From Patescibacteria group bacterium (GTDB lineage Bacteria; Patescibacteriota; Microgenomatia; UBA1400; PJMF01), in assembly GCA_041747555.1 (NCBI GenBank), contig JBGTEY010000003.1, positions 19,127 through 83,126 of the forward strand: 64,000 nt of DNA, given 5' to 3'. The notes beneath the pieces were generated by a model. The model saw only the letters and a list, made by a program, of their open reading frames with translations, was not told the DNA's origin and made no database searches. A program made the translations under genes and the position numbers. This document shows positions 15,563 through 49,477 of the stretch, piece by piece. Within the stretch, counting starts at the first letter, position 1, and the number at the start of each line of letters is the position of its first letter.

Positions 15563-15583
15563 CAGTATAGAACACCTCGACCA

Positions 15584-18857: not shown

Positions 18858-20642
18858 TTATTTTTTCTCAATATTGAAAAATGCCCCGCCACATGGATTT
18901 CCAGACCACTGTGGAATTCTCATGTTTCCAGGCGCGCGCAAGTTGAAAGCTTTGCAAAACTCACTTCCACTCATACTGACTCCATTGATATTGACTGACG
19001 AAGTACTGCCATTTCCTTGCGTGACAGAAACGCTGTTGGCAGCCGATATTCCACCATACTTGCCCGCCACATCTCTGAGTTCTCCAAGACTATATGGATT
19101 GCCACCCCAACAGTCGGTGGTAACTGGGCTAATTCGCGCGGCTTCACCAGAATTGCCTTTGGTGATTATCAGGTGTGCGTTTACGATATCGGCCATTTCC
19201 TCTGGACTGAGCCAAGGGTTAGAGCGACCACACGTTGAACCACTACTACTATATCCTTCACGCCACCAGGATTTATACAACCAAGGTGAGCCGCCTATTT
19301 TCTCATACGCTTTGTCTAGAAAGTTTGATCCACCCGAACCATCGGTGGTATCCCATCCGCCAGTTTTAGTCCAACCACCGTGTGTTGAAGCATATTGTGT
19401 TGAAACTGGGTTTCCACCACCATCAACGAGGACCATACCCTTAGTTTCCCTAACTGCTTCTTCCCAGGCTCCGCCTTTTGGTGAGTTTTTAAATACCTGG
19501 CATTTTTCTGTGGTGCAGATTGAATTCTGACCATTACTTGTGTGTTTGATTGCAAATGTTCGAGCAGCAATCGCTTGTGCCTTGAGGACTTCTTTGGGCC
19601 AGCTGGCGGGAACTTCGTAGATTCTCATCAGATACCAATCCTCAAATGAGCCAGCGCCATGACCCTGGACGGTAATTTCTCCCATAACTGGATAATCTGT
19701 TTTAATTGATGTGCCTGGATAGTATGCATTTAGTATTTGCTCATAATTCTGCCCGCTCTTGGCTCTCCCCAATGCCCCATATTGGCTCATACCATTTCGA
19801 TGACTATATGCACCAAATGAAAAGATCGCAAAATGCCCACTCGGTGCACTTTCACGAAAACCAACGATAGAAGCCAATCGATCGTCTGCCAATTCGCTAT
19901 CACCACTCACAGTAAATCCTCCCGATCTAGAGTTAATAATTTCAGTTTGTCTTGCCGAAAGCTCTGCTATTTGACCACCAAGAACTTGCTGATAGTCCTT
20001 AGCCTTACCTATTTCACTTTTGAAAAAATCTGCCTGCTCATCAAGCTGCTTCTCGAGTCCTGCGAGTGTTATTTGATCTTGTTCGAGCTTGGTTTTGTCT
20101 TGTTCCAGAAGTGCGATGTCTGCGCCGATGGTTTGGATGAGCTTGTTGTCTTGGGCTTTAACAGAGCTTCGATATGCCAAATCCTTGGTGAGATCAGCTG
20201 CATCTTGATTAGAGAAAATCAATAGAAAGTCAGAGTTAGTGCGTAATTTTTTATACTGTTCAAAAATTCTTCTCGAAAGAATTTCGTACTGCGTTGCCAG
20301 ATCTTTTTCTCGAGAATCAATTTGCTTTGCGACTTCTTCGCTCTCCGCTTTTGCCCGAACCACCCCTGCGCGTGCGTTATTTATTCTATTTTCTAGATCA
20401 GAAACTTGCGACTCCAATGGCTTGGTGGCGTCTTCTGAGAGTTTTTTGAGGTGTTCCAACTCATCAATTTGTTGTTGCAGCTCAATCACTTCGTCGGCAC
20501 TTACTTGTTTTATTGGGGAATAAAGACCCATATATGAGCCTAAATTAAATACAGGCCACATATTTGAAATCGGCCCAAGCACCAATAAAAATCCCAATCC
20601 CAGAGCTAGCTTGGCAGGCAACCAACGTTTCATAGTATTCAC
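18858..20642 (-). CDS. SpoIID/LytB-domain protein with N-terminal signal and long coiled coil
   Basis: The C-terminal half contains AQAIAARTF and YASTHGGWT, matching the SpoIID YxSTxGG motif. The N-terminal ~250 aa is heptad-rich. Confidence 0.6.
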   Translation of the reverse strand: MNTMKRWLPAKLALGLGFLLVLGPISNMWPVFNLGSYMGLYSPIKQVSADEVIELQQQIDELEHLKKLSEDATKPLESQVSDLENRINNARAGVVRAKAESEEVAKQIDSREKDLATQYEILSRRIFEQYKKLRTNSDFLLIFSNQDAADLTKDLAYRSSVKAQDNKLIQTIGADIALLEQDKTKLEQDQITLAGLEKQLDEQADFFKSEIGKAKDYQQVLGGQIAELSARQTEIINSRSGGFTVSGDSELADDRLASIVGFRESAPSGHFAIFSFGAYSHRNGMSQYGALGRAKSGQNYEQILNAYYPGTSIKTDYPVMGEITVQGHGAGSFEDWYLMRIYEVPASWPKEVLKAQAIAARTFAIKHTSNGQNSICTTEKCQVFKNSPKGGAWEEAVRETKGMVLVDGGGNPVSTQYASTHGGWTKTGGWDTTDGSGGSNFLDKAYEKIGGSPWLYKSWWREGYSSSGSTCGRSNPWLSPEEMADIVNAHLIITKGNSGEAARISPVTTDCWGGNPYSLGELRDVAGKYGGISAANSVSVTQGNGSTSSVNINGVSMSGSEFCKAFNLRAPGNMRIPQWSGNPCGGAFFNIEKK

Positions 20643-20711: not shown

Positions 20712-21899
20712 ATGAGTGCGCGCCTAAACCTGCAGAAATTACTGCTTGTAGTCACCTTAGTCTTTTCATTTTTCTTGAGTGCTTTGGTGCCAACAAAAGT
20801 TGCGGCTCAAAATGCATGCAATCCCTCAATACTTGACCACAATATCGAGGCTACTTACTTTGACGATGATCCAGACAATTCGATGAATATTACGGTCAAT
20901 AATCTGATTAACGGATCACTTTATTCGATACGAGTTATCGACTCGACTGGACTTGCTCTATCTGATGTCCAAATAAATTCAGGTGGAAATGGTCAGATCA
21001 CCACTATTATAAGTGCATCACTCGATCCTGATGTTTTTGATTATGATGTTGGTCTGGTTGGATCAGTTCCTGGATTCAGGCGGGTTACACTTTTTGGCGA
21101 TGGAATAGGCGTATGTGAAATCGCTACATTTTATATTATTGAAGAAAGTCTCATTTTAGATGACTACGAAGTATATCAAAACATTGGCGGTCAACAATGT
21201 TCTGAGAAAAATGGAGGCTGTTTAAACACCACACAACCAATTGTTTTTGAGACAAGAATAATATCTGCTTCTACTGGGGATGGTGTACCCGACTTGAATA
21301 TTTTGCATAACAGGAGTGGGGCGGGCAATCAATTACCAGCAACATACCTTGGAAATGGTGTATATAGGAGTAGTCATCCCCCCATGGACGATGGAACATA
21401 CACCATGTACGTAGAGGAGAACGGAACATTAAGTAACCCAGACATAGGTGATTTTTCGTTTACCGTCTCAATTGACTGCGATTCTTGTGTCCCACCTGGA
21501 GACATTACTGACGATTCAGTCAATCCAGTCGAAGATATTTACAACTTTTGCAATCAAATCAACGACGCTTCTCAACGCGCTGACTGCCTTGACTGTGCTG
21601 GAGGTCGGGGTGATTACAACGGTGTCTGGACTGCAGTCGGCTGTATTTCAAGAGAGCCAACCAGCATTGCGAGGACCTTCATTAGAATTGGTCTCGCTAT
21701 GTCAGGCGGTGTTGCTTTGCTCATGATTCTTGGTGCTGGCTTTATCCTTGCTACATCAGAAGGAGACCCCAAGCGCACTTCTGAAGCCAAAGAAATGGTG
21801 ACTGCAGCGGTGGTCGGATTACTATTTGTGATATTCTCAGTTGTAATTCTACAATTTATTGGATTTACCATCCTACAAATACCTGGGTTCGGAGGATGA
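20712..21899 (+). CDS. Secreted Cys-rich protein with C-terminal VirB2/TrbC-like two-helix pilin module
   Basis: Signal peptide ending VAAQN, then a ~280 aa Cys-rich domain. The C-terminus IGLAMSGGVALLMILGAGFILATSEGDPKRTSEAKEMVTAAVVGLLFVIFSVVIL has the same TM1-charged loop-TM2 layout as the small pilin-like paralogs downstream. Confidence 0.5.
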   Translation: MSARLNLQKLLLVVTLVFSFFLSALVPTKVAAQNACNPSILDHNIEATYFDDDPDNSMNITVNNLINGSLYSIRVIDSTGLALSDVQINSGGNGQITTIISASLDPDVFDYDVGLVGSVPGFRRVTLFGDGIGVCEIATFYIIEESLILDDYEVYQNIGGQQCSEKNGGCLNTTQPIVFETRIISASTGDGVPDLNILHNRSGAGNQLPATYLGNGVYRSSHPPMDDGTYTMYVEENGTLSNPDIGDFSFTVSIDCDSCVPPGDITDDSVNPVEDIYNFCNQINDASQRADCLDCAGGRGDYNGVWTAVGCISREPTSIARTFIRIGLAMSGGVALLMILGAGFILATSEGDPKRTSEAKEMVTAAVVGLLFVIFSVVILQFIGFTILQIPGFGG

Positions 21900-21903
21900 T
21901 GAA

Positions 21904-22566
21904 ATGAATACCGGAGTACTTAAAGCAATACTTGCGCGACTCAGTCTTCACCTTCTTGCTGTCGTGGTGTTATTTGGTATTTCTCTGATCGGGAATCCTG
22001 CAAAAGTGTCCGCTCAAAACATATTGCAATGTGGCACAGCTTTTTATTCAGATGAAGACCCCCCACCAATATGCCAATGTAGTTCTGGGGAAAGTCCATA
22101 CTTTGGTGATCTCGTCTGTTGCGGCTGGGTTTTCTCAAATCCAGATACCGGACAGCTTGCATGTGTTAGCACAAACTCAAATCCTTTTGACCCAGATATA
22201 GAGGGTGGCGACATTATTATCACCGAAGGTGTCTCAAATGCTACATTTGACATTCTCAATCCACTCCAAATTGGTGGTGGGGAAAACATAAATGTCGAAG
22301 CAGCCTCAGACTTTGCGACAGATCTCTCCACCCCTGGCGGTATAGTCACTAGACTACTTGAATTTGCCTTTCCCTTGGCGGGGTTATTGCTGTTCCTCAT
22401 GCTTGTCTGGGGTGGATTCGAAATCTTGGCTGGATCTGCCACCAAAAAATCAGTTGATGCAGGAAAACAAAGAATTACCGCAGCAATTCTGGGATTTTTA
22501 CTCCTGTTTGCAACCTACTGGATAGGACAACTACTCGAGGTGGTTTTTGGGGTAGTGATTCTTTAA
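21904..22566 (+). CDS. Secreted protein with C-terminal VirB2/TrbC-like pilin module
   Basis: The start is taken at ATG 21904, preceded by GGAGGA; the ORF track's TTG at 21859 is unlikely. Signal peptide ...AKVSAQN. The C-terminus LAGLLLFLMLVWGGFEILAGSATKKSVDAGKQRITAAILGFLLLFATYWIGQ is the pilin-like module. Confidence 0.5.
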   Translation: MNTGVLKAILARLSLHLLAVVVLFGISLIGNPAKVSAQNILQCGTAFYSDEDPPPICQCSSGESPYFGDLVCCGWVFSNPDTGQLACVSTNSNPFDPDIEGGDIIITEGVSNATFDILNPLQIGGGENINVEAASDFATDLSTPGGIVTRLLEFAFPLAGLLLFLMLVWGGFEILAGSATKKSVDAGKQRITAAILGFLLLFATYWIGQLLEVVFGVVIL

Positions 22567-23399: not shown

Positions 23400-24227
23400 T
23401 TAATCTGTGATTTCTTTCACTATTTTTGTACCAACATGTCGAGTATTTTTGAGCGCTGCAGTGATTTCACCGTATTTCGTAGCATTAATAATTTGCGCAG
23501 GAACCCCGCGTTCCGCCATCACAAGTGATTGCATCACCTTATGATTCATACCACCAGTAACATCGAGTCCAGCGGACTCACCAAGAGCTTGCGTGTGTTG
23601 TTTCACTGTATCCGGTGTTAAGAAATCAATTGTCTTACCTGTAGCATCCAACACTCCCTCAGTAATGCCACAATGTAGTATTGTATCAAATTGCCACCCC
23701 TTTTGTCCCATCTCATCCGAGACATACTCTAGAACTCGCTCTGTAGAGAAAATCGTACACCCATCATTTTGATCAAAAATTACATCGCCGTGTACGACAG
23801 GAATGCATCCAACCTGGAGTGCATGCTCAATGCCTTCAATCCATACCCGCTCTAATTCATGGTCTTTGGCAATAAATATTGATTGAGGACTAACTGAAAC
23901 TACTGGTACACCAGCTGCAATCAGTGCCGACATAACCATGTAATTCAAGTTGCGCATCGCGTGAGAAACTTGAATAACACCTTCTTGACTTGAATCGTTC
24001 ACCCAACCCTTGTGTGTTTGATATTTTTTAGCCAGGACATGCCCAAATGACCCTGCGCCGTGTCCTAGAATCACCGGCCCACAGTCAGGCAACACTTCTG
24101 CAAGTTCTTTACAGATTTGACGCAACATTTGTTCATCAAGTGCAAATTCCTGTGTTTTGTCAGTGATAAGAGATCCGCCTAATTTGATGAGTGTGACAGG
24201 CCTTTGCTGGTAAGTTAGTTTGTGCAT
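23400..24227 (-). CDS. ipk: Isopentenyl phosphate kinase (amino-acid-kinase family)
   Basis: LIKLGGSLITDK, LGHGAGSFGH, PVVHGDVIFD and DVTGGM align with the archaeal IPK motifs ILKLGGS, HGGGAFGH, VIHGDIV and DVTGGM. Confidence 0.8.
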   Translation of the reverse strand: MHKLTYQQRPVTLIKLGGSLITDKTQEFALDEQMLRQICKELAEVLPDCGPVILGHGAGSFGHVLAKKYQTHKGWVNDSSQEGVIQVSHAMRNLNYMVMSALIAAGVPVVSVSPQSIFIAKDHELERVWIEGIEHALQVGCIPVVHGDVIFDQNDGCTIFSTERVLEYVSDEMGQKGWQFDTILHCGITEGVLDATGKTIDFLTPDTVKQHTQALGESAGLDVTGGMNHKVMQSLVMAERGVPAQIINATKYGEITAALKNTRHVGTKIVKEITD

Positions 24228-24253: not shown

Positions 24254-24694
24254 ATGGTAATCACCAATATGTTCACTAGAGGAAAATCTCAATCTGCACA
24301 AGTAGTACCTCATTTTTTTATGGTGGTTTTGGTATTTTTTGCCTTATTTTTTGGTCTGTCACATCCAGCGCAAGCACAATGCGATCCCGGCAATGGAAGT
24401 ATTAACCTTGGAGAATGTTTGCGATTGAGTAATGATCAAGGTGTAGGTGAAGTTTACGAAAGCCCTGCATTTTTGGTAAATTTAATCGTAAGAAATTTGT
24501 TTGTTGCTGGGGCAGTCATTCTATTCCTCATGGTATTTTATGCAGGGTTTCTCTTTGTATTTAAAGGCAAAAAAGGTGTTGAGGATGCAAAAGCCGTTGC
24601 CACCAATGCTATTATTGGGTTTGTGGTCATGTTTTCTGCATACTGGATCGTACAAATCATCGCGGTCGTCACGGGCACTAATATACAACTCTAA
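24254..24694 (+). CDS. VirB2/TrbC-like pilin paralog 1
   Basis: Signal peptide ...SHPAQA|QC, a short Cys-containing head, then TM1 (LFVAGAVILFLMVFYAGFLFVF), loop KGKKGVEDAK, and TM2. The real start may be ATG 24269. Confidence 0.55.
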   Translation: MVITNMFTRGKSQSAQVVPHFFMVVLVFFALFFGLSHPAQAQCDPGNGSINLGECLRLSNDQGVGEVYESPAFLVNLIVRNLFVAGAVILFLMVFYAGFLFVFKGKKGVEDAKAVATNAIIGFVVMFSAYWIVQIIAVVTGTNIQL

Positions 24695-24697
24695 AAC

Positions 24698-25159
24698 ATG
24701 AACATACCTACACCAGTACATACTTGGCACAAATTTGCTTCTAAAACACCATTTTTGATGGCCGCATTGCTCGTAGTTGTTGTTTTTTTCTCCGCATATT
24801 CGCCTGTTTTAGCACAGATTGATGATATTGGCACGATTGATGTACCACCTGGTGTTGAACAATACAACACAAGCTCTGGTGCCGATATTGGCCTCGTGTT
24901 TTTCATCTCAAGAATGATTAGACTTGCGACTCTTGTTGCTGGATTGTGGGTCACCGCAAATACCATGATGGCGGGATATGTCTATCTTTCATCACAGGGA
25001 AAAGCCGATGCACACGGGAGAGTTCGAGACATTCTAACCATGAGCACCATCGGTCTGGTTCTAATTGTGACTGCCTACACCGTTGCGGGACTTTTAAGCT
25101 TGTTGATTTTTGGCGATCCCCTTTTTATTCTGAATCCTACTATTGAAGGGCCAGCATGA
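24698..25159 (+). CDS. VirB2/TrbC-like pilin paralog 2
   Basis: Same architecture: signal ...SPVLAQ, TM1, loop SSQGKADAHGR, TM2. The C-terminal motif is FGDPLFILNPTIEG. Confidence 0.55.
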   Translation: MNIPTPVHTWHKFASKTPFLMAALLVVVVFFSAYSPVLAQIDDIGTIDVPPGVEQYNTSSGADIGLVFFISRMIRLATLVAGLWVTANTMMAGYVYLSSQGKADAHGRVRDILTMSTIGLVLIVTAYTVAGLLSLLIFGDPLFILNPTIEGPA

Positions 25160-25725
25160 TTTCAAACATCATAAACCGAATCAAGTCATTCGCAATTCAC
25201 ACCGCAGTGATACTTGTGGTGTTTTGTGTCCCATTTTTTATCAACGCTCCCGTAGCTCAAGCACAATGCACAGGACCCGAACACGCTGGAAATTGTGTTG
25301 ATAATCGCACATGCATCAACTATCAAGGAGCATGGGTGGCGTTCGGTGCTGAGTGCGGATCTTCTTCTATTGGTGGTGTTCGAGCCCCCCAAGGTGTACA
25401 TCAATATAATCTTCTTGCTGGCACATACGGCTCAACTACTGCCAGTGGCCTGGTTGTGTTTGCCTCTAGAGCTATGCAGCTTGCGAGCATAGTTGCCGGG
25501 ATTTTCATGATGATCAACTTGGTTCGTGCGGGCTTTATTTATATCACCAAATTTGACCAAACATCAGCGCATCAGGAAGTACGAGATCTCCTCACTTACA
25601 GTGTGGTCGGTCTAGTAATCATGGTTTCTGCGTATGCTGGAGGTGGATTGATTGGTCTGGTATTCTTTGGAGACGCCACATTTGTTCTCAGTCCAACACT
25701 TGAGGGAGCAGTTCCACCACCGTAA
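25156..25725 (+). CDS. VirB2/TrbC-like pilin paralog 3
   Basis: Signal ...APVAQA|QC and a Cys-rich head. The C-terminal FGDATFVLSPTLEG motif is shared with paralog 2. The start overlaps the upstream stop (ATGA). Confidence 0.55.
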   Translation: MISNIINRIKSFAIHTAVILVVFCVPFFINAPVAQAQCTGPEHAGNCVDNRTCINYQGAWVAFGAECGSSSIGGVRAPQGVHQYNLLAGTYGSTTASGLVVFASRAMQLASIVAGIFMMINLVRAGFIYITKFDQTSAHQEVRDLLTYSVVGLVIMVSAYAGGGLIGLVFFGDATFVLSPTLEGAVPPP

Positions 25726-25777
25726 TAGTTAGATCGCCATCTGGTTTAACAACAGGTAGCTGGTATATAATGCAAAT

Positions 25778-26152
25778 ATGAAACTTTTCGTACCACAGCT
25801 AATTGCACAATTTGGAGGAGGTTTTGAACCTCCTGTTGATAATACATTCACCCAAGGTGCTGATTCGACACCAGAGGCAAACTTAGAAGTTATCGTGTCT
25901 AATATGCTTGGTGTGGTGACAGTTTTTGCAGGATTATTTTTCTTAATTTACTTTCTTATCGCTGCGTTTAAATGGATTTCTGCTGGTGGCGACACAGGCA
26001 AAGTTCAGGCTGCGCGCGATCAAATCATGAATGGAATTCTTGGATTAGTCATGGTGGTTGGCACGTACACAATTGTCGCCATAATTGGCGTCATCGTTGG
26101 ATTTAATATCTTGAATCCAGCAGCAATTATTAGAGATACATTGGTACCGTAA
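25778..26152 (+). CDS. VirB2/TrbC-like pilin paralog 4
   Basis: 124 aa with the loop SAGGDTGKVQAARDQ between two hydrophobic helices. The ATG lies 6 nt downstream of tggtatataat, suggesting a leaderless start. Confidence 0.5.
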   Translation: MKLFVPQLIAQFGGGFEPPVDNTFTQGADSTPEANLEVIVSNMLGVVTVFAGLFFLIYFLIAAFKWISAGGDTGKVQAARDQIMNGILGLVMVVGTYTIVAIIGVIVGFNILNPAAIIRDTLVP

Positions 26153-26611
26153 ATGAAAATAGCTGCAAATATCAATCAAATTCTCCGTACAAATCTAGGA
26201 ATCATATTTGTAGGACTGGTTATTCTACTGATGACAACATCCCCTGTGTCTGCGCAGATCACCAATCCAGTTATCGGTGAATTAGGTCAGGGCATCGGTG
26301 ATACGAGCGGCGACGAAAAATCAGCAGAGCTATTTGCCAACTTTTTTGTGAGCATTTGGCAAGCAGTGATTATGTTTGGTGGATTAACGGTGTTAGTGTT
26401 CTATATTTGGGGCGCATTTGAGTGGATTACTGCAGGAAGCGATACGAGCAAAGCAGAAAAAGCTCGATATAGAATCACCAATGCAACAATTGGCCTCATA
26501 CTGCTTATTAGCACATTTGTCATTGTTGGTTTTGTCAGCACCGCGCTCTTCGGAGAAGAGTTCCAAATTCTTAACTTAAGCCTACCAACCACACAAATTG
26601 GCGCACCATAA
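26153..26611 (+). CDS. VirB2/TrbC-like pilin paralog 5
   Basis: Signal ...SPVSAQ and loop TAGSDTSKAEKARYR. It is adjacent to the upstream stop. Confidence 0.55.
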   Translation: MKIAANINQILRTNLGIIFVGLVILLMTTSPVSAQITNPVIGELGQGIGDTSGDEKSAELFANFFVSIWQAVIMFGGLTVLVFYIWGAFEWITAGSDTSKAEKARYRITNATIGLILLISTFVIVGFVSTALFGEEFQILNLSLPTTQIGAP

Positions 26612-26623
26612 ATAAGGAAAACC

Positions 26624-27031
26624 ATGCTACTCTCCACTCTTATCGCTCAAGCAGAAATTAACCTCGGGCAAACAGCGATTGATCAAGGACTGCCTGGCAC
26701 CGCAGATGTTGATACCGCAGATTATGCCGGCGCCTTTGGAGTAATTCTTGGCAATATCATGAGTTTTGTGATGGTAATTGCCGCTCTTGCGGTACTTTTA
26801 TACCTCATCTGGGGTGCTGTTGAATGGATTACTGCTGGAGGAGATTCCGGAAAAGTAGAAAAAGCACGAACCAAAATGATGAATGCGATTATCGGTATTA
26901 TTGTTTTGTCTGCCGTAACAGCGATCTTTATGCTGATTCAAGAATTTTTAGGTCTGGAATTGCTTGATTTCGGAGGTGGTGGTCGATTTGATGATGTTGA
27001 CCTTGGGGGTGGTGGAGATGGCAGAAATTAA
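26624..27031 (+). CDS. VirB2/TrbC-like pilin paralog 6 (Gly/Asp-rich C-terminal tail)
   Basis: Loop TAGGDSGKVEKARTK, with C-terminal GGGGRFDDVDLGGGGDGRN. Confidence 0.5.
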   Translation: MLLSTLIAQAEINLGQTAIDQGLPGTADVDTADYAGAFGVILGNIMSFVMVIAALAVLLYLIWGAVEWITAGGDSGKVEKARTKMMNAIIGIIVLSAVTAIFMLIQEFLGLELLDFGGGGRFDDVDLGGGGDGRN

Positions 27032-27090
27032 TCATCACCTCTGCATCAACACCGCGATCGCTGCATTCAGCGAAATCAAAACCCTCAACT

Positions 27091-27124
27091 AAAGTAAAGC
27101 ACTTGACGTACGAAAATAAATCCA
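27091..27124 (+). promoter_or_regulatory. Sigma70-like promoter (TTGACG-18 nt-TATAAT) with downstream AAGGAG SD for paralog 7
   Basis: The sequence cttgacgtacgaaaataaatccatgtataatg is followed by ttaaggagtcaaATG at 27153. Confidence 0.5.
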
Positions 27125-27152
27125 TGTATAATGAATTAGTTGAAGTAAGTAC

Positions 27153-27605
27153 TTGAGATTAAGGAGTCAAATGACAAGACCAACATTCGATCGAGTAAAA
27201 CAGTATGCTGGATATGTTGCTACCTCAGCAACTGCCCTCGCACTATCTGCAAGAGGTGTTCTCGCCCAAGATGGAATTGATATCGGCACAGTTGAAACTG
27301 GAACTGGTTTTGCAACTGACCTTGGCTCAGTGATTACCGCTGTTCTTAGTTTTGTAATGATCATCGCTGCTCTGCTCGTCTTTCTCTACCTCATCTGGGG
27401 TGGAATTGAGTGGATCACATCTGGTGGTGACAAAGGAAAAACAGAAAGTGCTCGAAACAAAATTACGAGTGCTGTCGTGGGTATGATTATCCTCGCTGCT
27501 TCCTATGCAATACTGCTGCTCATCCTCAGATTCATCGGATTTGAAGACCTCGCAGATGTATTCGGTCAAGCATCAACTATTAATGAAGCTGGAGGCGCTG
27601 AATAA
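27153..27605 (+). CDS. VirB2/TrbC-like pilin paralog 7
   Basis: Signal ...GVLAQ and loop TSGGDKGKTESARNK. A canonical SD is present. Confidence 0.55.
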   Translation: MRLRSQMTRPTFDRVKQYAGYVATSATALALSARGVLAQDGIDIGTVETGTGFATDLGSVITAVLSFVMIIAALLVFLYLIWGGIEWITSGGDKGKTESARNKITSAVVGMIILAASYAILLLILRFIGFEDLADVFGQASTINEAGGAE

Positions 27606-27644
27606 CTTCCTGTATCACAACATTGCTTGTGAAAATAATAAAAA

Positions 27645-27667
27645 CCCCTCTCCGGAGGGGTTTTTTA
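27645..27667 (+). terminator. Rho-independent terminator closing the pilin array
   Basis: The stem cccctc-tccg-gagggg is followed by tttttt. Confidence 0.7.
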
Positions 27668-27739
27668 GTGCTGCAGGATTAGTCTGATCACACCCCACTC
27701 CACTCGCCTGATATTTAATAATCAGGTATACTACAGTTC

Positions 27740-28177
27740 ATGAAACCAACTCAAGAAAAGAAATCGCCTTTAAAACCGAAGGTCTCTGCGCTGGTTACAA
27801 ACGGCACCGCGTTCATCCTTAGTTTCTTTATTTTTGCCCAGCAAGCATTTGCTCAAAGCGCTTGGTCTGGCGTTTGTGTTGGTGGAGATGACAATGATGT
27901 TGCCACAATTCAAGGTCTAGAGTGCCTCATTGCCAATGTGTTTCAAGTAATTTTAACCGTTATTGGCTTGGCTGGTTTTGTAATGATGATTGTCGGTGCG
28001 TTCCGCTGGCTAGTTTCAGGTGGAAATACTAAGGGCGTCGAGTCTGCGCGCAATACCATTACCTTCGCTGTAGTAGGGTTGGTTGTGGCACTGAGCGCAT
28101 TTATCGTTCTCAACTTGATCGCATCATTCACTGGCGTCAACGTTATCACCTCGTTTGTGATTCCTGAGTCAACGTAA
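27740..28177 (+). CDS. VirB2/TrbC-like pilin paralog 8
   Basis: Signal ...AFAQS and loop VSGGNTKGVESARNT. The ATG is 7 nt downstream of tatact, giving a leaderless-type layout. Confidence 0.55.
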   Translation: MKPTQEKKSPLKPKVSALVTNGTAFILSFFIFAQQAFAQSAWSGVCVGGDDNDVATIQGLECLIANVFQVILTVIGLAGFVMMIVGAFRWLVSGGNTKGVESARNTITFAVVGLVVALSAFIVLNLIASFTGVNVITSFVIPEST

Positions 28178-28234: not shown

Positions 28235-31200
28235 GTGTTGAAAAACCTCTTCTCGCTAGCGGTATTTTTTGTGATGGTCGTCTTTGGACTATTCTCGGCA
28301 AATGCTGCACAAGCACAAACTGTGGGCTCACACCTAGGTGTAGGAGACATTGGTGGCCAAATTAGTAACATACAGGTGCTCAGGGCAAATGGTGCGGGTC
28401 AAGGTTTTCCGGTAACTGCTCTACTCAATGTCAACACCGCTGGCAATAACGAGCAAAGCATGCGAGATTTGCAGTTTGAGATTACTGAAGCGGGCTTTTA
28501 TCCCATTATTCGTATTACCCATGTGTGTGATCCTGCGCTGACTGAACCCTTTGTTAGAGCGGCTATTGATAATATTAACGCTACCTTTACTCAAGAACAC
28601 ACTATTGTTTATGGAAATGAAGTCAATAATGCTGCGGCAGAATGCCCTGACCCAGAGCAATATGTTCGGGAATACAACTGGATTAATGATATGGCCAATG
28701 TGGTGCCGGCAGCACTTGACTTTTACAACGGAGATTTCCCTACAAGCACATTCTTTACTGCTGGAAATGGAAGTGCAGGCACAATCTATAGCGGTAACGG
28801 ACCATTTGCTGCAAATGCCTATGGCTGTGTTGGTACGCTTGACCCAACTTGCGAACCTGCTACCACCGACACTCACGAACAAGGATATGCTCGCTATTCA
28901 AGTGCAGACTATTACATCCTCACCGAATTCTCACTCTCGCCCGAGGGTCGTGTGCCCGGAGCTCCAGACACCAACCTCGAAAAAGTTATTGAATTCATTC
29001 AAGGTCGCGCTGGAGACACTGGCGCCCGTTACATCACTCCCCTCGTCAGAAACGTCTGCAACAATGAAGGAGAATGGCTTTTGTACGTCAACGGCAGGCT
29101 ATTCACCATGAATAGTACCGAGGTTACCGATAATTGTGAGGGAAATCCTGGCGGGTATGGGGATGGATACCCATTTTATGATGTGAGTGATTCAGATTTT
29201 TACATTACTCCAATCAAATCACTGGGGCTGAACATCGATCCAGCGGCCAAATCTGCAGCAATTCGATCAGAACTTGCTCAATCTGGATACGAAGCATACT
29301 GCGCAATGGATGGAATAACGGTTCGCCCTGAATATAACTCAATGGACCTGATCAATCGCTTTTTGGAATTGCAAACAGAAGGGCGTGCCGATCCACTCCT
29401 TGGCGCAACCGCCAACTCTGTAGCGGTTCTAGACTTTACTACTGCTAAAACACCTGTTTGGCGAGATGTCGGTGTTGGCACTCGCAGATTTATGATGACA
29501 TCCCTTGAGGAATATTTTTCGTTCAAAGACGTGTATGACGTACCAGGCTCAACAAACGCAACTCGAGAAGTGGCTTCAGGAGCTATAAACTCACTCCTCA
29601 CCACACACCAACGCTGTGTTCAGTCTGCAAAAACAATCGTCGCAACCCAATTAATGTGTGAAAAACTTGAAGATCTTGGATCGTCGTGCGCATTGCGATC
29701 GAGAGAGGTCCCTGGGACCAACTATACGATGCAAACAATTATTGATGAGATGAATAAAGTAGCAGAAGCAACGGGCAATCACCCTAGAGCTGGAGAGGAA
29801 GTAGCATTTTGCGATGATGTTATTTACGACTTTGAGGAAATTTCTGAGATCACGCAAGAATTCAGGAAAGGTATCTTGAACGTCAATCTGCACATGGATC
29901 GAGCGTATAGATTAGCCTTTTTGGTTGCGCGGATTACAACACTTAGCCCTGGAGATGGCACGTTTGCGAATATGTTTAACTTCTTTACCGGAACCACCCG
30001 ATCTGGAATACCTCGAGATGAGGTGCTCATTATTGCTTTTAAAGTGCCAGATTTTGCTACAAACAGGGGTGGTGGTGAATCGAGTGGCAGCTACTACTGG
30101 GAAGACGCAGCATACTTAACCAGAAACGCACTCATAACTAAAGATAGAATCGCAGAAATAAATGACGAACTTAGAGCTGCGAAACGAAATGAGATCGAAG
30201 CAAACGCCAATAGTGCTGGAAATCGCTCGCAAGGTACGGGTGACAAGATTTTCTGCATCGATGGCGCATTTCCTGATGGAAACGGCTCACAAGCATGCAA
30301 AACACCCGTCGGCAAAGCTGTCGTCGACATTATTAACGGCAATGGCACCGCATGCTCAGAAGATATTGAGCCAGCAAATCAAATCTCTGATGCCGCCGGA
30401 CTCAATCCTATCCCCCCAGAGCAAAACACGGGCAAAATTTTCACCGCAGAGAATGGCGGAGATGTACTGATGAATCTATTTTTCGGAGATGGCACCCACC
30501 TCAGAAATGACGTCTACGATCCTCAAGCAGCCCGCACCACCCCCCAAGGTGCGACCTTTGGACAATTTCAAACAGTCTGGGATATCACACCAGATAGCTG
30601 GCCACCCACAGTTGGAAGTACTTCTGTTGAATTTTACTTAACATACCCGGCTGGATTTGAACAAGAATACATTGAACAAGTGTTAGCCGGCACCTTTTTT
30701 ACCCAACAAGAACTGGCTAACATCAGGGGGGAGAATCTAGAGATACCCGCTGATCCCGAACTTAAGGATCGATTCTCGATGATTGGTGGGCTGTTTGGAT
30801 TAAACACGGGCTCAATAAGTCATACATTTACCGATCCAGATGACTGCGAACTCGTAGAGCCAGAACCCATCATTGATCCAGAAACAGGTGAAGAAGTTAT
30901 CTATCCATACATTGATCCTGAAACCAAAAAACTCATCACAGGCCCTCCTCCACCCACTGAGGTTTGTAAAGAAAAAACCTTTTCGATCTCAATCGATACC
31001 GACCCTGTCGACTCGGTGCAGATTCTCGGCGCACGAATTGGCTTCTGGTCACGAACTGCACAACTCAAAATCAGCAGCTACTTCAGTCAGTCGCACGCAT
31101 ACCTTCTCTCTTGTAGCACCACAGAAGAATTCTTATTGGGAAATTGTGCCGGTGGTGCTCCCCCAGTTATTGCGGATCCAGTCCCAGATATTCCTCCGGT

Positions 31201-31759
31201 TGCTCGGTGTGAGGAGGGTAGTCCAAGAATTACCAGCGGCGAAAACGCACAGCATGTTTTCTCACTTGCCGATCCAAACTGTACCATCTATGAGGAGAGC
31301 GTTCACAACATTCCGGGCTGGAAAAATGAAAATGAATCCTATAGACCATGTGACGAACTGTACTCATATGTAGCCTGCACCTACCCCAACACGCTTATTG
31401 AAAATCAGGTGAATGCAGCAGGGGAATTTGTAGACGAAGGCGTAATGACCGCATGCGAATATGTCGTCCAAAGAGCGCAAGCTGCCGGCATCAGTCCCCG
31501 ATTCGCACTTGCAATGTGGGGTGAGGAGTCCGGATTTAGTAATTATGGCGGACCTGATTTGGGAGCAATATTTGTGGATTATCCCAACCTTGGTACACAA
31601 ATGACGGCATTTATTGGGGCGGTGAATGAGAACGATAATTACTTGGATTTTCTGGTTCAATACTCTGAAGGAACTTCGAATGTTGGCACGAACCGATTCT
31701 GCTCAAATCCCTGGTTCGTTGGTCGACTAAAAGAGTACCACGAATTTTTAGGACCTTGA
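28235..31759 (+). CDS. Large secreted protein (1174 aa), hypothetical; possible lysozyme-like C-terminal region
   Basis: Signal peptide MLKNLFSLAVFFVMVVFGLFSANAAQAQ with a GTG start. It is Cys-rich and contains short IDPET repeats. The C-terminal region ...RAQAAGISPRFALAMWGEESGFSNYGG loosely resembles glycoside-hydrolase/lysozyme ExxS motifs; this is a weak match. Confidence 0.5.
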   Translation: MLKNLFSLAVFFVMVVFGLFSANAAQAQTVGSHLGVGDIGGQISNIQVLRANGAGQGFPVTALLNVNTAGNNEQSMRDLQFEITEAGFYPIIRITHVCDPALTEPFVRAAIDNINATFTQEHTIVYGNEVNNAAAECPDPEQYVREYNWINDMANVVPAALDFYNGDFPTSTFFTAGNGSAGTIYSGNGPFAANAYGCVGTLDPTCEPATTDTHEQGYARYSSADYYILTEFSLSPEGRVPGAPDTNLEKVIEFIQGRAGDTGARYITPLVRNVCNNEGEWLLYVNGRLFTMNSTEVTDNCEGNPGGYGDGYPFYDVSDSDFYITPIKSLGLNIDPAAKSAAIRSELAQSGYEAYCAMDGITVRPEYNSMDLINRFLELQTEGRADPLLGATANSVAVLDFTTAKTPVWRDVGVGTRRFMMTSLEEYFSFKDVYDVPGSTNATREVASGAINSLLTTHQRCVQSAKTIVATQLMCEKLEDLGSSCALRSREVPGTNYTMQTIIDEMNKVAEATGNHPRAGEEVAFCDDVIYDFEEISEITQEFRKGILNVNLHMDRAYRLAFLVARITTLSPGDGTFANMFNFFTGTTRSGIPRDEVLIIAFKVPDFATNRGGGESSGSYYWEDAAYLTRNALITKDRIAEINDELRAAKRNEIEANANSAGNRSQGTGDKIFCIDGAFPDGNGSQACKTPVGKAVVDIINGNGTACSEDIEPANQISDAAGLNPIPPEQNTGKIFTAENGGDVLMNLFFGDGTHLRNDVYDPQAARTTPQGATFGQFQTVWDITPDSWPPTVGSTSVEFYLTYPAGFEQEYIEQVLAGTFFTQQELANIRGENLEIPADPELKDRFSMIGGLFGLNTGSISHTFTDPDDCELVEPEPIIDPETGEEVIYPYIDPETKKLITGPPPPTEVCKEKTFSISIDTDPVDSVQILGARIGFWSRTAQLKISSYFSQSHAYLLSCSTTEEFLLGNCAGGAPPVIADPVPDIPPVARCEEGSPRITSGENAQHVFSLADPNCTIYEESVHNIPGWKNENESYRPCDELYSYVACTYPNTLIENQVNAAGEFVDEGVMTACEYVVQRAQAAGISPRFALAMWGEESGFSNYGGPDLGAIFVDYPNLGTQMTAFIGAVNENDNYLDFLVQYSEGTSNVGTNRFCSNPWFVGRLKEYHEFLGP

Positions 31760-31803: not shown

Positions 31804-32745
31804 TCATCCGCCAGACGAAGTTCTTGTTGGCTGATAGTTGAGCGAACCAGGCTTAGGATTATTTGAACGGGAATTGTTTTTGGATGGCTGAGATTTTTGT
31901 TGTGATGGTTTGTGGGAAGAATACTTCTTTTCCCCCGGTGTAATCGTGATGCTGGCATTTGATCCCGAATCAGATCGTTTTGTATCACTAGCTCGCACTG
32001 CTTTACTCTTCTGCGCGCGCTCAGCCCCACTCCGCATCAATCGAGCGATGGTTTCAAACGTGTCTGCTGTCATACCAGGTGACTGAAAATTATCGGTGAC
32101 ATGCTCGATACCTCGCAATAAACCTGTCGCCGTTTCTGCAGAAACCGGCAATTGGGTTTCCTGCAGTAAGCGAGCCAATAGCTCACTACTTGATGAATAT
32201 CCAGAAGTATTAATATTTAATACGGCAAATGACGCATCAAACGCTGCAATAGATATCACACTTGCATCGCGATAATGATCCTCATATCCAAAATAAAGCT
32301 GCTTTAAGTCTTCGAGGTCACGAACTCCAATGAGAATAATAACTTCAGCGGCTATACCGGTGTAAGAAAAATCGACTTTGCTTGAGTCAAGTGGTGGGTG
32401 TCCTTGCTTGGGCTTAATTGTGAGATAAAATTTTCCTGAATCATCCCCTATATGGTAGCTAACTTTATCAACTGACTCCTCTGAATACTCAAAACTAATA
32501 GTTAAATTCTGATTACCGATCTCTGTGACCATGGTGGCAAGCCCGCTAAAAGCTGCTTGAGATGCAGGCTTTTCTGGTGAAGCGAGGGTTACTATTTTTC
32601 CCTGCTCTACAAGTGATTGTGCTAGTGCGCTCGCAACCCCAAGTTGGTCAAACGTTGGATCTGTCCCAAATGCCACCACAATTCTTTCTGCATCATTGAT
32701 GATGCTTTGAAATTGGGTGGAGTGCTGTGACTGAATCATAATCAA
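31804..32745 (-). CDS. DHH/NrnA-like phosphoesterase homolog with degenerate catalytic motifs and basic Ser-rich tail
   Basis: AERIVVAFGTDPTFDQLGVASALAQSL aligns with the NrnA region ...ILHRHVRPDPDAYGSQCGL. TATGLLRGIEHVTDNF aligns with YAGIVGDTGRF. The DHH triad appears as DHY, and the first His/Asp residues are replaced. Confidence 0.4.
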   Translation of the reverse strand: MIMIQSQHSTQFQSIINDAERIVVAFGTDPTFDQLGVASALAQSLVEQGKIVTLASPEKPASQAAFSGLATMVTEIGNQNLTISFEYSEESVDKVSYHIGDDSGKFYLTIKPKQGHPPLDSSKVDFSYTGIAAEVIILIGVRDLEDLKQLYFGYEDHYRDASVISIAAFDASFAVLNINTSGYSSSSELLARLLQETQLPVSAETATGLLRGIEHVTDNFQSPGMTADTFETIARLMRSGAERAQKSKAVRASDTKRSDSGSNASITITPGEKKYSSHKPSQQKSQPSKNNSRSNNPKPGSLNYQPTRTSSGG

Positions 32746-32922: not shown

Positions 32923-34611
32923 ATGTTGAAAAAAGCTGCCACTTGGCTATTGATCGCAGTCTGCGTTTCTAGTGCATTTTTTGCGCTATCTCCAAGTATC
33001 GCTTTTGCTCAGGATGAAGAATATGCACCCTACAGCGCAGGTCAGGCAATGCTTGATAAAGAGCAGTACGATGCAGCTATCCGAAATTGCGACACCCCCT
33101 CACTTGAGTGCTTAGTGCACCAAATTTATAAATTTTCGATGATTGAATCAGTTAATTCAATTGCATACCGAGAAGGTCTGTCCGGCCCTGATGCTGGAGC
33201 TGGCATTAATGGTGGTACACAGGTCGCAAGATCTGGAGGTTTTGTTGGTGATGTTTTTGGGCTAATTGGCACATTTTATGAACAACCTCCTGCACGCACT
33301 AATGTTTGGGTGGCTGACACACTTGAAAGCATGAATATCGCGCAGCCCGCACAGGCTCAAGGCCTTGGGTTTGCAGCGCTCGACCCTATTCTCGATCTCT
33401 GGAAATTATTTAGAAATGTAGCATATGTGTTTTTTGTAGTTATTTTTGTGATTATTGGTTTCATGATCATGTTTCGCACCAAAATAGGTGGTCAAACTGC
33501 CGTAACCGCCCAACAAGCCATCCCCAGCATCATTATTAGCTTGATACTCGTTACATTTTCCTATGCCATCGCTGGATTTATGATTGATTTGATGTACGTG
33601 ATAATGTTCCTGATGGTTGGACTCTTCGGCACAACGATGACCACACAACAACCAGATATCATTAGTTGGAACATACTAGAATTAATGGGACACCTTTTCA
33701 AACATCCTGAGATAAGTAGCTTTAGTGGTAATGTTGACACAATTACTACCATGATTGAGGGAATGGCTGACAATGAAGCAATTGCTGGTGTTGGTGGCTT
33801 AATTGGTGGCATCACCCTTACGTTTGTGCTGGCTATAGCAATCCTTATCGGCACGTTTAAGCTCTTCTTTGAGTTACTCAAGTCATACGCAAGTATTGTG
33901 CTTGATGTGATTATTGCCCCAATTTACTTGATGGTCGGTGCAATTCCCGGCAGACAAGGGGTGTTTAAAGATTGGATTCGCGACTTAGCTGGAAACCTTG
34001 CGGCTTTTCCTGCCGTGCTACTTATGACGATCTTATTTTATGAATTTAGCGAAAACCAAGCGTTTCAAAGTGTTGACGACTACGGTGGTTTCATGCCTCC
34101 ATTTCTATTAGGTAGAGGCCAACCTGGCGCAATATCTTCACTACTAGGCTTGGCAATTATTTTGGCACTACCAGAGATCGTGAAGGAAGTTAAGACTGCA
34201 GTTGGAGCTAAAGAAGGTATTGGTACGAAGATTGCCGGATGGGCAGCATCGACAGCGAAGCAAGGTGTACCGTTGGGTGGACGAGCAGCGAGCATTCCTA
34301 TTGGCGGTGCGCTCGGTGCTGCGGGCAAGATGGTTGGCAATTTACCTGAAGCTAGAAGAAACAAAAGTCTGGAACACTTATTTGACGGAACTCTTGGCGC
34401 AGCAAGAAGAGGCGCTGGCAGAGGTGTTGAGGCAACAAGTTGGGCATCGAGGTCTATGGGAGCAAATCAACCAGATGTTCTCAACCTCATTACAAACCCA
34501 ATTGATAAAGTGCTAGGAAGTGATTCTATGAGAAGACAAGAAGCGTTCCAGCAGGCATATGAAGACGTCTTCCAAAGAGGCAGGAGTGTCTCTTCTCGCG
34601 ACCCCAAGTAG
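32923..34611 (+). CDS. Polytopic membrane protein with signal peptide; candidate VirB6/TrbL-like T4SS channel subunit
   Basis: Signal ...SIAFAQ, a ~150 aa extracytoplasmic head, then 6 or more TM helices and a Gly/Ala-rich cytoplasmic tail. The call rests on topology, size and T4SS context only. Confidence 0.35.
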   Translation: MLKKAATWLLIAVCVSSAFFALSPSIAFAQDEEYAPYSAGQAMLDKEQYDAAIRNCDTPSLECLVHQIYKFSMIESVNSIAYREGLSGPDAGAGINGGTQVARSGGFVGDVFGLIGTFYEQPPARTNVWVADTLESMNIAQPAQAQGLGFAALDPILDLWKLFRNVAYVFFVVIFVIIGFMIMFRTKIGGQTAVTAQQAIPSIIISLILVTFSYAIAGFMIDLMYVIMFLMVGLFGTTMTTQQPDIISWNILELMGHLFKHPEISSFSGNVDTITTMIEGMADNEAIAGVGGLIGGITLTFVLAIAILIGTFKLFFELLKSYASIVLDVIIAPIYLMVGAIPGRQGVFKDWIRDLAGNLAAFPAVLLMTILFYEFSENQAFQSVDDYGGFMPPFLLGRGQPGAISSLLGLAIILALPEIVKEVKTAVGAKEGIGTKIAGWAASTAKQGVPLGGRAASIPIGGALGAAGKMVGNLPEARRNKSLEHLFDGTLGAARRGAGRGVEATSWASRSMGANQPDVLNLITNPIDKVLGSDSMRRQEAFQQAYEDVFQRGRSVSSRDPK

Positions 34612-38228: not shown

Positions 38229-38250
38229 CCTCTTAAACGAGGAGTTTTTT
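38229..38250 (+). terminator. Terminator-like hairpin (ctcctc-ttaaac-gaggag + T6) abutting the annotated start of the downstream gene
   Basis: Read directly from the sequence at 38229-38250. Confidence 0.45.
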
Positions 38251-40147: not shown

Positions 40148-40155
40148 TCGAGAGT

Positions 40156-46940: not shown

Positions 46941-48158
46941 ATGCGCGAGCACCCAATTCCCACAGATATCACCAACTATCGTTTTCATATAATCGGAACG
47001 ATGACGCTCAAGCAGTTTGGTGAGGTTGCGCTCGGAGTAATTGTCGCGTTTTTGCTGTACATGACCAATTTGCCTGTGGTAGTTAAATGGCCATTGATCA
47101 TTTTTTCAGTCGGACTTGGGGGGGCTGCTGCCTTCATCCCTATTGCCGAGCGTCCGCTCGATCACTGGATCGTGACATTCTATAAAGCACTTTACAAACC
47201 CACTCAATTTTTCTGGAAACGAACAGAGCGAATTCCAGAACCTTTCCTATTTAAACCACGTGATAATGAAAAACCTCAAGAAGAAGAGCTTGATTTAACA
47301 CCCTACAAGCGTCAGAGAATTAAAGAATATCTTCACTCTGTTCCCTCTGAAACACCCTATAGTCCTTCGTTTACAGAAGATGAAACTGCCAGAATGCAAA
47401 GTATTCTTGACTCATTTTCAACAACGCCCGTAACTTCCACATCGTCAACGCCAATTCGTGAAAACGCCGTCAAACCAACGCTTTCGGTAAGGGTGCGGGA
47501 CATTCGAGCACCAGAATCTAACGATCTTACTACACCAATTCTTTCCCAAGCAGCACCGACTACTGCCATTCTTCCTCAAGCAACTGAAGAATCTCCCATA
47601 AGCCCAGCAGCACTTTTTGAAACATCAGAATTACTACCCGATCAAGAACAAAGCGCGAGCAAACGCTTGATTGACCAAACACCTCAAGTATCCACACCGT
47701 CAGAACTCAACCAAACCCATCAAGATCACACTATTATTCATTCAACACAAGATACTAAAACTAATACACCAACTGTCGAAATAGCCGCTGATGAGATAAT
47801 TCAAGTTGCGGCACCCTCGCGCACCTCAAGTCAATCAAGGCATATTCCTGAAAGTACCACCAACGACGACGATCTCTCCTTATTTCCAGATCTTCCAACA
47901 GAACCAAACAAAATTGTTGGTATAGTGGTCACTCAAAACAATGAACTTATCCCCGAAGCAATTATTGAAGTAAAAAATGACCGTGGAGAAGTGCAGCGGG
48001 CTGTAAAAACTAATGCCTTGGGTCAATTTTTCATCACAACTCCTCTCATGGATGGTGATTACACGATAACAATTGAAAAAGAAGACTTTGTATTTGAGCC
48101 GTATCAAATTCAACTCAGTGGCCAAGTCGTTCGCCCGATCAAAATACAGAGCTTGTAA
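46941..48158 (+). CDS. PrgI/VirB3-like membrane protein fused to Pro/Thr/Ser-rich linker and C-terminal beta-sandwich (carboxypeptidase-regulatory-like) domain
   Basis: The N-terminus PIPTDITNYRFHIIGTMTLKQFGEVALGVIVAFLLYM matches the PrgI-family pattern (VPKDIRxYxEKxxGGLTLRQF + TM). The C-terminus IVGIVVTQNNELIPEAIIEVKNDRGEVQRAVKTNALGQFFITTPLMDGDYTITIEK resembles a CarbopepD_reg fold. Confidence 0.5.
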   Translation: MREHPIPTDITNYRFHIIGTMTLKQFGEVALGVIVAFLLYMTNLPVVVKWPLIIFSVGLGGAAAFIPIAERPLDHWIVTFYKALYKPTQFFWKRTERIPEPFLFKPRDNEKPQEEELDLTPYKRQRIKEYLHSVPSETPYSPSFTEDETARMQSILDSFSTTPVTSTSSTPIRENAVKPTLSVRVRDIRAPESNDLTTPILSQAAPTTAILPQATEESPISPAALFETSELLPDQEQSASKRLIDQTPQVSTPSELNQTHQDHTIIHSTQDTKTNTPTVEIAADEIIQVAAPSRTSSQSRHIPESTTNDDDLSLFPDLPTEPNKIVGIVVTQNNELIPEAIIEVKNDRGEVQRAVKTNALGQFFITTPLMDGDYTITIEKEDFVFEPYQIQLSGQVVRPIKIQSL

Positions 48159-48193
48159 ACAAACCTCTGTCTGAAGTACAGTACACATAGGAT

Positions 48194-49474: not shown

Positions 49475-49477
49475 ACG

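Follow-up and report, generated by a model that had tools for sequence, protein, structure and literature searches.

Introduction

In other type IV secretion systems (T4SSs), the proteins VirB1, PrgK, and TraG open the producer's own wall locally. In Southlakia epibionticum, a member of the tractable Saccharibacteria, homologues of peptidases and lysozymes that are encoded beside virB4 are essential. This study concerns a protein of 1174 amino acids (aa) that is encoded beside the pilin genes of a T4SS-like locus in a Patescibacteria group bacterium, within a 64,000-nt stretch of contig JBGTEY010000003.1 (assembly GCA_041747555.1, positions 19,127 to 83,126) that we call the window and from whose first letter all coordinates are counted. 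Published T4SS loci of Patescibacteria have an MPF-FATA-like VirB4, arrays of 2-11 pilin genes, and proximity to dnaA, while canonical VirB1 is scarce; pilin arrays are especially abundant in Microgenomatia (PMC12102498). VirB6 has been called 'scarce' in Microgenomatia. The T4SS-like system is essential for epibiotic growth of Southlakia epibionticum, the sole Patescibacterium tested, and its role in Patescibacteria has been described as completely unknown (PMC10633639, PMC11665869, PMC12857230).

The window comes from a region near dnaA and dnaN on a Patescibacteria (candidate phyla radiation, Microgenomates-group) chromosome. It encodes a T4SS-like gene set of the monoderm type, which matches the published Patescibacteria loci (PMC12102498). 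An earlier note, made from the letters of the window, had described the 1174-aa protein as secreted and Cys-rich, with an own promoter-like element and a possible wall-lytic module at its C terminus. Here we describe its division into a predicted glycosidase barrel, a central scaffold, and a small helical domain, the exchange of both ends between members of its family, and the strict linkage of the family to pilin genes, and we tentatively assign it a role in cutting envelope glycans.

Results

An exported, Cys-rich protein encoded after a pilin array

The gene (28235..31759, + strand) runs from a GTG start to a TGA stop, and a search with its product returned 44 homologues at E ≤ 1e-57. As the earlier note had stated, it lies directly downstream of the pilin array, a set of eight tandem VirB2-like pilin genes (24254..28177, +) that all match PF18895 (T4SS_pilin); a spacer of 57 nt separates it from the last of them. 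A public protein collection contains an identical sequence (P0001), and a relative with 83% identity is annotated as 'hypothetical protein [Microgenomates group bacterium]'.

By inspection, residues 1-27 (28235..28315, +) are a predicted Sec signal peptide. They form the sole hydrophobic segment of the protein and are followed by A-N-A and A-Q-A motifs, and cleavage probably occurs between A27 and Q28. The alignment of homologues shows a conserved mature start from Q28 onward (Q-x-V-G-[ST]-H-L-G), in agreement with the proposed secretion. The label 'Cys-rich' is moderate but real: the protein contains 24 Cys (2.0%), an even number, of which 10 are invariant over the 44 homologues and another 9 are conserved in at least 90% of them.

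No part of the protein matched Pfam, NCBIfam, PHROGs, or PDB sequences. Profile searches of the PDB with five regions (the N-terminal domain, mid1, mid2, the type A tail, and a broad alignment of the C-terminal domain, all parts of the layout described below) gave chance-level matches only. The AlphaFold2 (AF2) model, built with the 44 homologues, has a mean predicted local distance difference test score (pLDDT) of 83.9, and 564 of its residues reach 90 or more. When the full-length model was compared with viral structures, the fold matches were barrels of the type of glycoside hydrolase family 5 (GH5) only, and nothing matched the scaffold. A second, word-indexed homologue search with the scaffold profile added four more proteins, which have no annotated domains.

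An N-terminal barrel resembling clan GH-A glycosidases

Residues 28-325 (28316..29209, +) are predicted to form a (beta/alpha)8 barrel resembling the glycosidases of clan GH-A. The AF2 model, with pLDDT mostly above 90 in this region, shows eight alternating strand/helix units, and the best Foldseek matches in the PDB and in a viral library are barrels of families GH53, GH5, GH30, GH79, and GH128 (E 1e-3 to 5e-2, Foldseek probability about 1.0, template modeling (TM) score up to 0.53). In clan GH-A an Asn-Glu pair follows strand 4 and a second catalytic Glu lies in strand 7. The predicted acid/base motif N128-E129 (28616..28621, +) comes after strand 4 (residues 123-126), and the predicted nucleophile E231 (28925..28927, +), part of the motif L-T-E-F-S-L-S-P, lies within strand 7 (residues 227-234). 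Both are conserved in at least 90% of the 44 sequences; their roles were assigned from position in the secondary structure, not from superposition. In the model, the domain thus combines the TIM-barrel fold with the catalytic-pair geometry of clan GH-A.

Some homologues with the same scaffold carry a true GH5 domain (PF00150) in the N-terminal slot, with scores of 26 and 40 bits (cutoff 23.5). Comparison of the window-type domain with these GH5-type modules by hhalign gave a probability of 1%. Judging from the model, the N-terminal domain is probably a GH-A-type, retaining glycosidase-like domain of a new family.

A central scaffold that defines the family

The barrel is followed by a mixed alpha/beta region with ten invariant Cys (residues 326-975, 29210..31159, +). 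Every member of the family has this scaffold of ~650 aa, whichever modules it carries at its two ends, and searches of Pfam, NCBIfam, PHROGs, and the PDB found no relatives of it. It is presumably stabilised by disulfides and docks the protein to a conserved partner, for instance the pilus or the machine.

A C-terminal helical domain with a W-x-E-E-S-G motif

An invariant C971-x-G-G precedes a Pro-rich, low-confidence linker (residues 976-988, 31160..31198, +) that forms the module junction; pLDDT is below 50 over residues 978-1002, and the tails of homologues diverge from the linker onward. The tail of the 1174-aa protein, which we call type A, has two parts. The first is a Cys-rich sub-domain (residues 989-1070, 31199..31444, +) that does not occur beyond close family members (positions 1 to about 85 of the profile), with C992, C1016, C1039, and C1048 invariant. 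The second, which we call the W-x-E-E-S-G domain (residues 1071-1174, 31445..31756, +), is a five-helix domain and a predicted lysozyme-like peptidoglycan glycosidase. Its predicted catalytic motif, W1095-G-E1097-E1098-S1099 (31517..31531, +), lies at the end of the second helix (residues 1088-1100) within the stretch GISPRFALAMWGEESGFSNYGG (residues 1085-1106, 31487..31552). W1095 and E1098 are invariant and E1097 is conserved in at least 90% of sequences, both in a set of 41 and in a set of 61 diverse sequences, and the AF2 model places E1098-S1099 at a helix end, where lysozyme-like enzymes have their catalytic Glu, typically within a Glu-Ser motif.

Searching the tail profile against 1.84 billion representative proteins (E ≤ 1e-3) retrieved 221 proteins, in which a helical domain of ~105 aa occurs in many architectures and in proteins of 113-2451 aa. 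Its consensus reads W-x-E-E-S-G-A-S ... G-C ... Y-S-x-G ... N-P-N-F-P ... Y. The domain is missing from Pfam, has no sequence match in the PDB, and gave no match by tblastn against phage and plasmid collections.

The earlier note had proposed a weak resemblance of this region to the catalytic regions of peptidoglycan hydrolases. Direct resemblance was not significant: the sequence searches returned no Pfam or PDB match, and the best Foldseek hit had an E value of 2.2. A separate AF2 model of the domain has five helices and a predicted TM score of 0.78. Among the 17 weak fold matches listed for it, none individually significant, 11 are GH23 or GH73 wall hydrolases (a lytic transglycosylase, a phage lysin, goose-type lysozyme, and GH73 autolysins). 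Comparison with the tails of the lysozyme-like SLT_3 family by hhalign gave a probability of 0.2%, and among 41 diverse relatives there were two weak matches to PF01832 (GH73 Glucosaminidase; E 0.026) and one to SLT_2 (E 0.04).

The context of the domain speaks more clearly. Of the 44 homologues from the first search, 17 have SLT_3 (PF18896) in the same slot after the C-x-G-G junction. Peptidase_M23 co-occurs in 11 of 61 other proteins with a W-x-E-E-S-G domain, two of which illustrate the range: P0079 combines NAGPA, M23, and W-x-E-E-S-G domains, and P0103 combines a GDSL esterase, VanY, M23, and W-x-E-E-S-G. Hence, the wall-lytic module suggested in the earlier note finds indirect support in the presence of GISPRFALAMWGEESGFSNYGG with its invariant Glu and conserved Ser, in the SLT_3 domains that take its slot, and in fusions to M23, VanY, and NAGPA, though not in a significant match to a hydrolase fold. 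By this context (slot and fusions) and not by homology, the C-terminal domain likely cleaves the glycans of peptidoglycan.

Both ends of the protein are exchanged as cassettes

Local searches with hidden Markov models (HMMs) showed that numerous relatives have the central region without the N-terminal domain. We typed the modules of 78 non-identical family members and found at least 6 N-terminal and at least 8 C-terminal classes in 15 combinations. The N-terminal classes comprise the window type (n = 54), true GH5 domains above the Pfam cutoff, a 'HNEPNCAE / YITESGP' type that appears GH-A-like by its motifs, a beta-rich type, and two singletons. At the C terminus we found type A (n = 35), SLT_3 (n = 24), the unassigned type C (n = 9), type E (n = 4), type D (n = 3), and three singletons. 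In hhalign comparisons, the W-x-E-E-S-G domain proved homologous to type D tails (probability 98%), and neither the type A tail nor the W-x-E-E-S-G profile showed a relation to SLT_3, type C, or type E tails. A PDB search with the type C tail profile matched HisF and designed TIM barrels (~40 residues, E about 4e-4), which we judged spurious because one short segment was matched repeatedly in engineered duplicates.

Closely related members differ in their ends. The scaffolds of P0053 and P0054 are 85% identical, yet one protein has the window-type N-terminal domain and the other GH5; P0004 and P0021, with scaffolds 77% identical, have a type A tail in one case and SLT_3 in the other. Unrelated modules on scaffolds that are 77-85% identical indicate recent cassette exchange. 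One member, P0044 (10001-14488 of locus L004), has three predicted catalytic modules, namely an inserted PF00150 GH5 domain (residues 158-330), the core GH-A-like N-terminal domain, and a C-terminal SLT_3. We had considered its PF00150 match as evidence on the core N-terminal domain and dropped it, as the alignment shows an extra GH5 inserted upstream of the core. The swapping of both ends is the most informative feature of the family. The earlier note had missed it, together with the N-terminal barrel and the scaffold.

The family is tied to pilin genes

PF18895 matches of the eight pilin genes in the window have E values of 1e-8 to 4e-3, and four of the eight score above the Pfam cutoff. We built a pilin HMM from this array, which recovers all eight genes (E 1e-30 to 1e-43), and then ran it over all loci of the family. 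A scan of one genome per species had given 39 loci, all in metagenome-assembled genomes (MAGs) of Patescibacteria. Every locus with a complete open reading frame (ORF) of the family (42 of 42) has 1-10 pilin ORFs directly upstream on the same strand, mostly with a gap of 5-130 nt, and none of the 42 has a pilin ORF detected by the HMM downstream of the family gene. This linkage holds across scaffolds down to about 21% identity.

Seven homologues of differing module types, inspected on their contigs, all follow a PF18895 array directly. All seven annotated loci also share the same three downstream genes, encoding a protein of ~315 aa (-), a polytopic membrane protein of ~560-650 aa (+), and a protein of ~1030-1500 aa (-). 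A gene for an M23/NAGPA protein lies further downstream where the retrieved locus was long enough (L001, L002, and L005). The co-conservation with T4SS pilin genes, which had been set as a test of the pilus connection, is therefore complete in this sample, and the family is a fixed component of the T4SS-like pilus locus of the Microgenomates group.

Among the MAG records that bear the locus (L009, L011-L014, L017, L019-L021, and others), many have the title 'uncultured Pseudomonadales bacterium' and one has 'Methylococcaceae', which are probably taxonomic mislabels of Patescibacteria MAGs.

Transcription and neighbouring genes

The proposed promoter-like element of the gene was not borne out. 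A scan of the 57-nt spacer for the sigma-70 consensus found no site; by eye, the spacer has only a TATACT hexamer 6 nt upstream of the GTG and lacks a -35 element at a spacing of 16-18 nt. Between its seventh and eighth genes, the pilin array is split by a strong, bidirectional terminator-like hairpin (27640-27665; 11-bp stem, 5 GC pairs, T-runs on both strands). As the hairpin precedes the last pilin gene, that gene and the gene of the 1174-aa protein may form a single transcription unit.

Six related loci (L001, L003, L005, L006, L007, and L008) have a divergent gene for an extracytoplasmic function-type sigma-70 factor (Sigma70_r2 and r4_2) immediately ahead of the pilin array and ~4-5 kb upstream of the family gene, frequently accompanied by a NUDIX gene. 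The window lacks this block, and its array begins right after an AA_kinase gene (23400..24227). Further upstream, two larger pilin-domain proteins of 395 and 235 aa (20712..22566) have a C-terminal PF18895-like domain. Their genes adjoin a divergent SpoIID-domain gene (18858..20642, -), a trio that is conserved in L005, L006, and L008. In some genomes (L004) the family gene comes after this pilin-domain pair and not after a long array.

Downstream, the convergent neighbour (31804..32745, -) encodes a 313-aa cytoplasmic protein with a disordered Ser/Lys/Pro-rich tail. A similar gene (310-365 aa) is present in all seven annotated loci, with size and position kept in all loci examined. It has no Pfam match, and its sole match is to a nucleotidyltransferase model at chance level (E 0.0035, 15.6 bits against a cutoff of 1440). 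The next gene (32923..34611, +), syntenic in 7 of 7 loci, encodes a 562-aa protein with a signal peptide, many hydrophobic helices, and no Pfam match, which is a candidate for a divergent VirB6-like channel protein. Three large, apparently cytoplasmic proteins of 1074, 632, and 555 aa follow (34709-37933, -, and 38249-41823), with no family assigned; a counterpart of the 1074-aa gene, similar in size and position, is conserved across related loci.

The window also encodes the M23/NAGPA protein (1335 aa; 41911..45918, +), and the same gene type is found downstream in L001, L002, and L005. It has a long N-terminal region with repeated coiled-coil-like sequence, then Gly/Ala-rich hydrophobic segments, and then the Peptidase_M23 and NAGPA domains. 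It is probably a membrane-anchored T4SS wall hydrolase and a candidate analogue of PrgK/TraG (VirB1). The T4SS gene set continues, next to dnaA, with the gene for PrgI (VirB3-like; 46941..48158, +), a 426-aa gene with no family assigned (within 46941..51607, +), and the gene for the VirB4 ATPase (49478..51607, +). The gene for a VirD4-like ATPase (coupling protein) lies at 3991..6327 (-), ~43 kb from virB4, which fits the published finding that most coupling-protein genes of Patescibacteria are not near virB4. Upstream of the T4SS region, and unrelated to the findings reported here, an ATP-dependent DNA ligase (595 aa) is encoded beside a Fic-domain and helix-turn-helix protein (363 aa) (13775-16675, -).

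Discussion

Function of the protein

The reading that we favour, with a little less than even confidence, is that the 1174-aa protein is a Sec-exported, three-part envelope-glycan hydrolase of the T4SS-like pilus locus of Patescibacteria (Microgenomates group), probably aimed at a variable host envelope. Its gene, its domain layout, the conservation of its proposed catalytic residues, its synteny, and the swapping of modules are findings of this analysis, and from these we infer catalysis, substrates, location at the pilus, and direction toward a host. Transcription of the gene together with the pilin genes is probable. The exported protein would then work extracellularly where the pilus acts, with the central scaffold presumably holding it at the pilus or machine. 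The N-terminal domain might function as a retaining glycosidase-like enzyme, with E129 as acid/base and E231 as nucleophile, and the C-terminal domain as a lysozyme-like peptidoglycan glycosidase, with E1098 as catalytic acid. The targets would then be peptidoglycan plus a second polysaccharide layer.

Swapping of both catalytic ends between near-identical scaffolds suggests that the substrate is probably variable, which favours the envelope of a host or target over the producer's own wall. A partner envelope is also favoured because two glycan specificities are combined, because the protein looks soluble after cleavage, and because the locus encodes a separate anchored M23/NAGPA hydrolase, which lies near VirB4 and could cover the role of VirB1.

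Several results weigh against such a two-enzyme, host-directed protein. The N-terminal domain gave fold matches of marginal E value, and their list includes TIM barrels that are not glycosidases. The domain has no Pfam match (whole protein at E ≤ 0.1, residues 1-340 at E ≤ 10), its PDB profile search was empty, and it belongs to no curated GH family such as PF00150. Comparisons between N-module types by hhalign gave probabilities of 1-8%, with the NE and E motifs aligned but not significantly so. The C-terminal domain in turn has no Pfam match at E ≤ 10, including SLT, SLT_2, SLT_3, and Glucosaminidase, and the matches in its fold search, with TM scores of at most 0.37, were all non-significant. 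The Sec signal argues against a classical T4SS substrate recruited by VirD4, and no immunity-like exported protein is encoded beside the gene.

A more specific form of the proposal, possible but rather doubtful in our view, is a host-range 'drill', in which a pilus-docked, tailspike-like depolymerase uses its exchangeable N- and C-terminal enzymes to digest the surface polysaccharide and peptidoglycan of the host so that the pilus or channel reaches the host membrane. If this were true, cassette swapping would track host switching.

Alternatively, the protein could be a VirB1-like opener of the own wall that digests the producer's peptidoglycan and a secondary wall polymer for passage of the pilus or T4SS channel. 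We consider this unlikely. The gene adjoins pilin genes within a T4SS-like locus as virB1 adjoins virB2, and family members contain SLT_3, but the locus already has a membrane-anchored hydrolase with M23 and NAGPA domains near VirB4. Monoderm analogues of VirB1 are membrane-anchored, whereas the signal of the 1174-aa protein looks cleavable and its sequence contains no second hydrophobic segment. A second glycosidase of the GH-A/GH5 type is not known as a feature of VirB1 proteins, which also counts against this explanation. Recent swapping of ends on scaffolds that are 77-85% identical is hard to square with the producer's own, slowly changing wall.

The protein might instead be a structural contact protein or adhesin of the pilus, functionally analogous to VirB5 or PrgB, with ends that bind host glycans and have little or no catalytic activity. 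A large, exported, disulfide-rich protein that is always encoded right after the array would suit this role, variable ends on a constant scaffold recall receptor-binding proteins, and no PrgB-type adhesins have been found in T4SS loci of Patescibacteria (PMC12102498). The conserved residues make such a role improbable, since N128/E129 and E231 at 90% conservation or more and the invariant W1095 and E1098 argue for active enzymes. The swapped-in modules belong to the recognised catalytic families GH5 and SLT_3, and the protein has no similarity to VirB5 or PrgB.

Least probable is a general extracellular polysaccharide degrader for nutrient scavenging, with an incidental T4SS neighbourhood: Patescibacteria do have numerous glycoside hydrolases with a supposed role in supplying fermentation (PMC11665869) and the N-terminal domain is GH-A-like, but the family gene comes right after pilin genes in 42 of 42 loci, even where scaffold identity falls to about 21%, the order of the genes downstream is kept too, and the C-terminal partners are wall-hydrolase modules and not typical catabolic ones.

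The favoured reading, an exported envelope-glycan hydrolase, suggests a concrete activity at the pilus, the cutting of cell-envelope glycans. With a constant scaffold and swappable ends, the family makes it testable whether the own or the host envelope is the substrate and whether module type follows the host. The W-x-E-E-S-G domain, present in about 221 representative proteins and absent from Pfam, is a new domain associated with wall hydrolases.

Comparison with known systems

Loci of this type have already been published. Neither the literature searched nor Pfam contained the family of the 1174-aa protein, the scaffold, the exchange of cassettes, or the W-x-E-E-S-G domain. VirB5, the exported tip protein associated with the VirB2 pilus, is helical and has about 220 aa, in contrast to the 1174 aa and several domains of the protein described here. 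The N-terminal domain shares with clan GH-A (GH5, GH53, GH30, GH79, and GH128) the predicted barrel with an Asn-Glu and a Glu about 100 residues apart, but by sequence profile it falls in no Pfam GH family. Similarly, the C-terminal domain resembles GH23 SLT and goose lysozyme, GH73 (LytB, AtlE, and FlgJ), and SLT_3 in being a small helical domain with an invariant Glu-Ser-Gly after a helix, but the motifs that follow the catalytic Glu in GH23 are not evident in it.

VirB1 and its monoderm analogues (PrgK of pCF10, TraG of pIP501, CwlT, and TcpG) are likewise encoded in T4SS-type loci beside pilin or channel genes. They are also multi-domain proteins, the family described here includes an SLT-type module (in its SLT_3 homologues), and cutting of peptidoglycan for a trans-envelope machine is expected of both. 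Unlike VirB1, TrsG, and CD419, the 1174-aa protein has no SLT, CHAP, or NlpC match in Pfam or NCBIfam. By inspection it has a cleavable-type signal, whereas PrgK and TraG have an N-terminal membrane anchor, and it differs from the VirB1 analogues in its GH-A-type barrel, its novel 650-aa scaffold, and its exchanged ends. The separate M23/NAGPA hydrolase of the locus looks closer to the PrgK type than the 1174-aa protein does.

Polymorphic toxins and the tailspike or depolymerase proteins of phages offer a further comparison, to which the family bears no homology. In the 1174-aa family both ends vary, not the C terminus alone, and export appears to use Sec. Unlike polymorphic toxins, its genes have no adjacent gene for an exported immunity protein; the gene that follows is convergent, encodes no signal peptide, and keeps its size and position whatever the module type. 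What the family has in common with toxins and tailspikes is a constant trunk with exchangeable enzymatic modules, as would be expected for a variable target surface.

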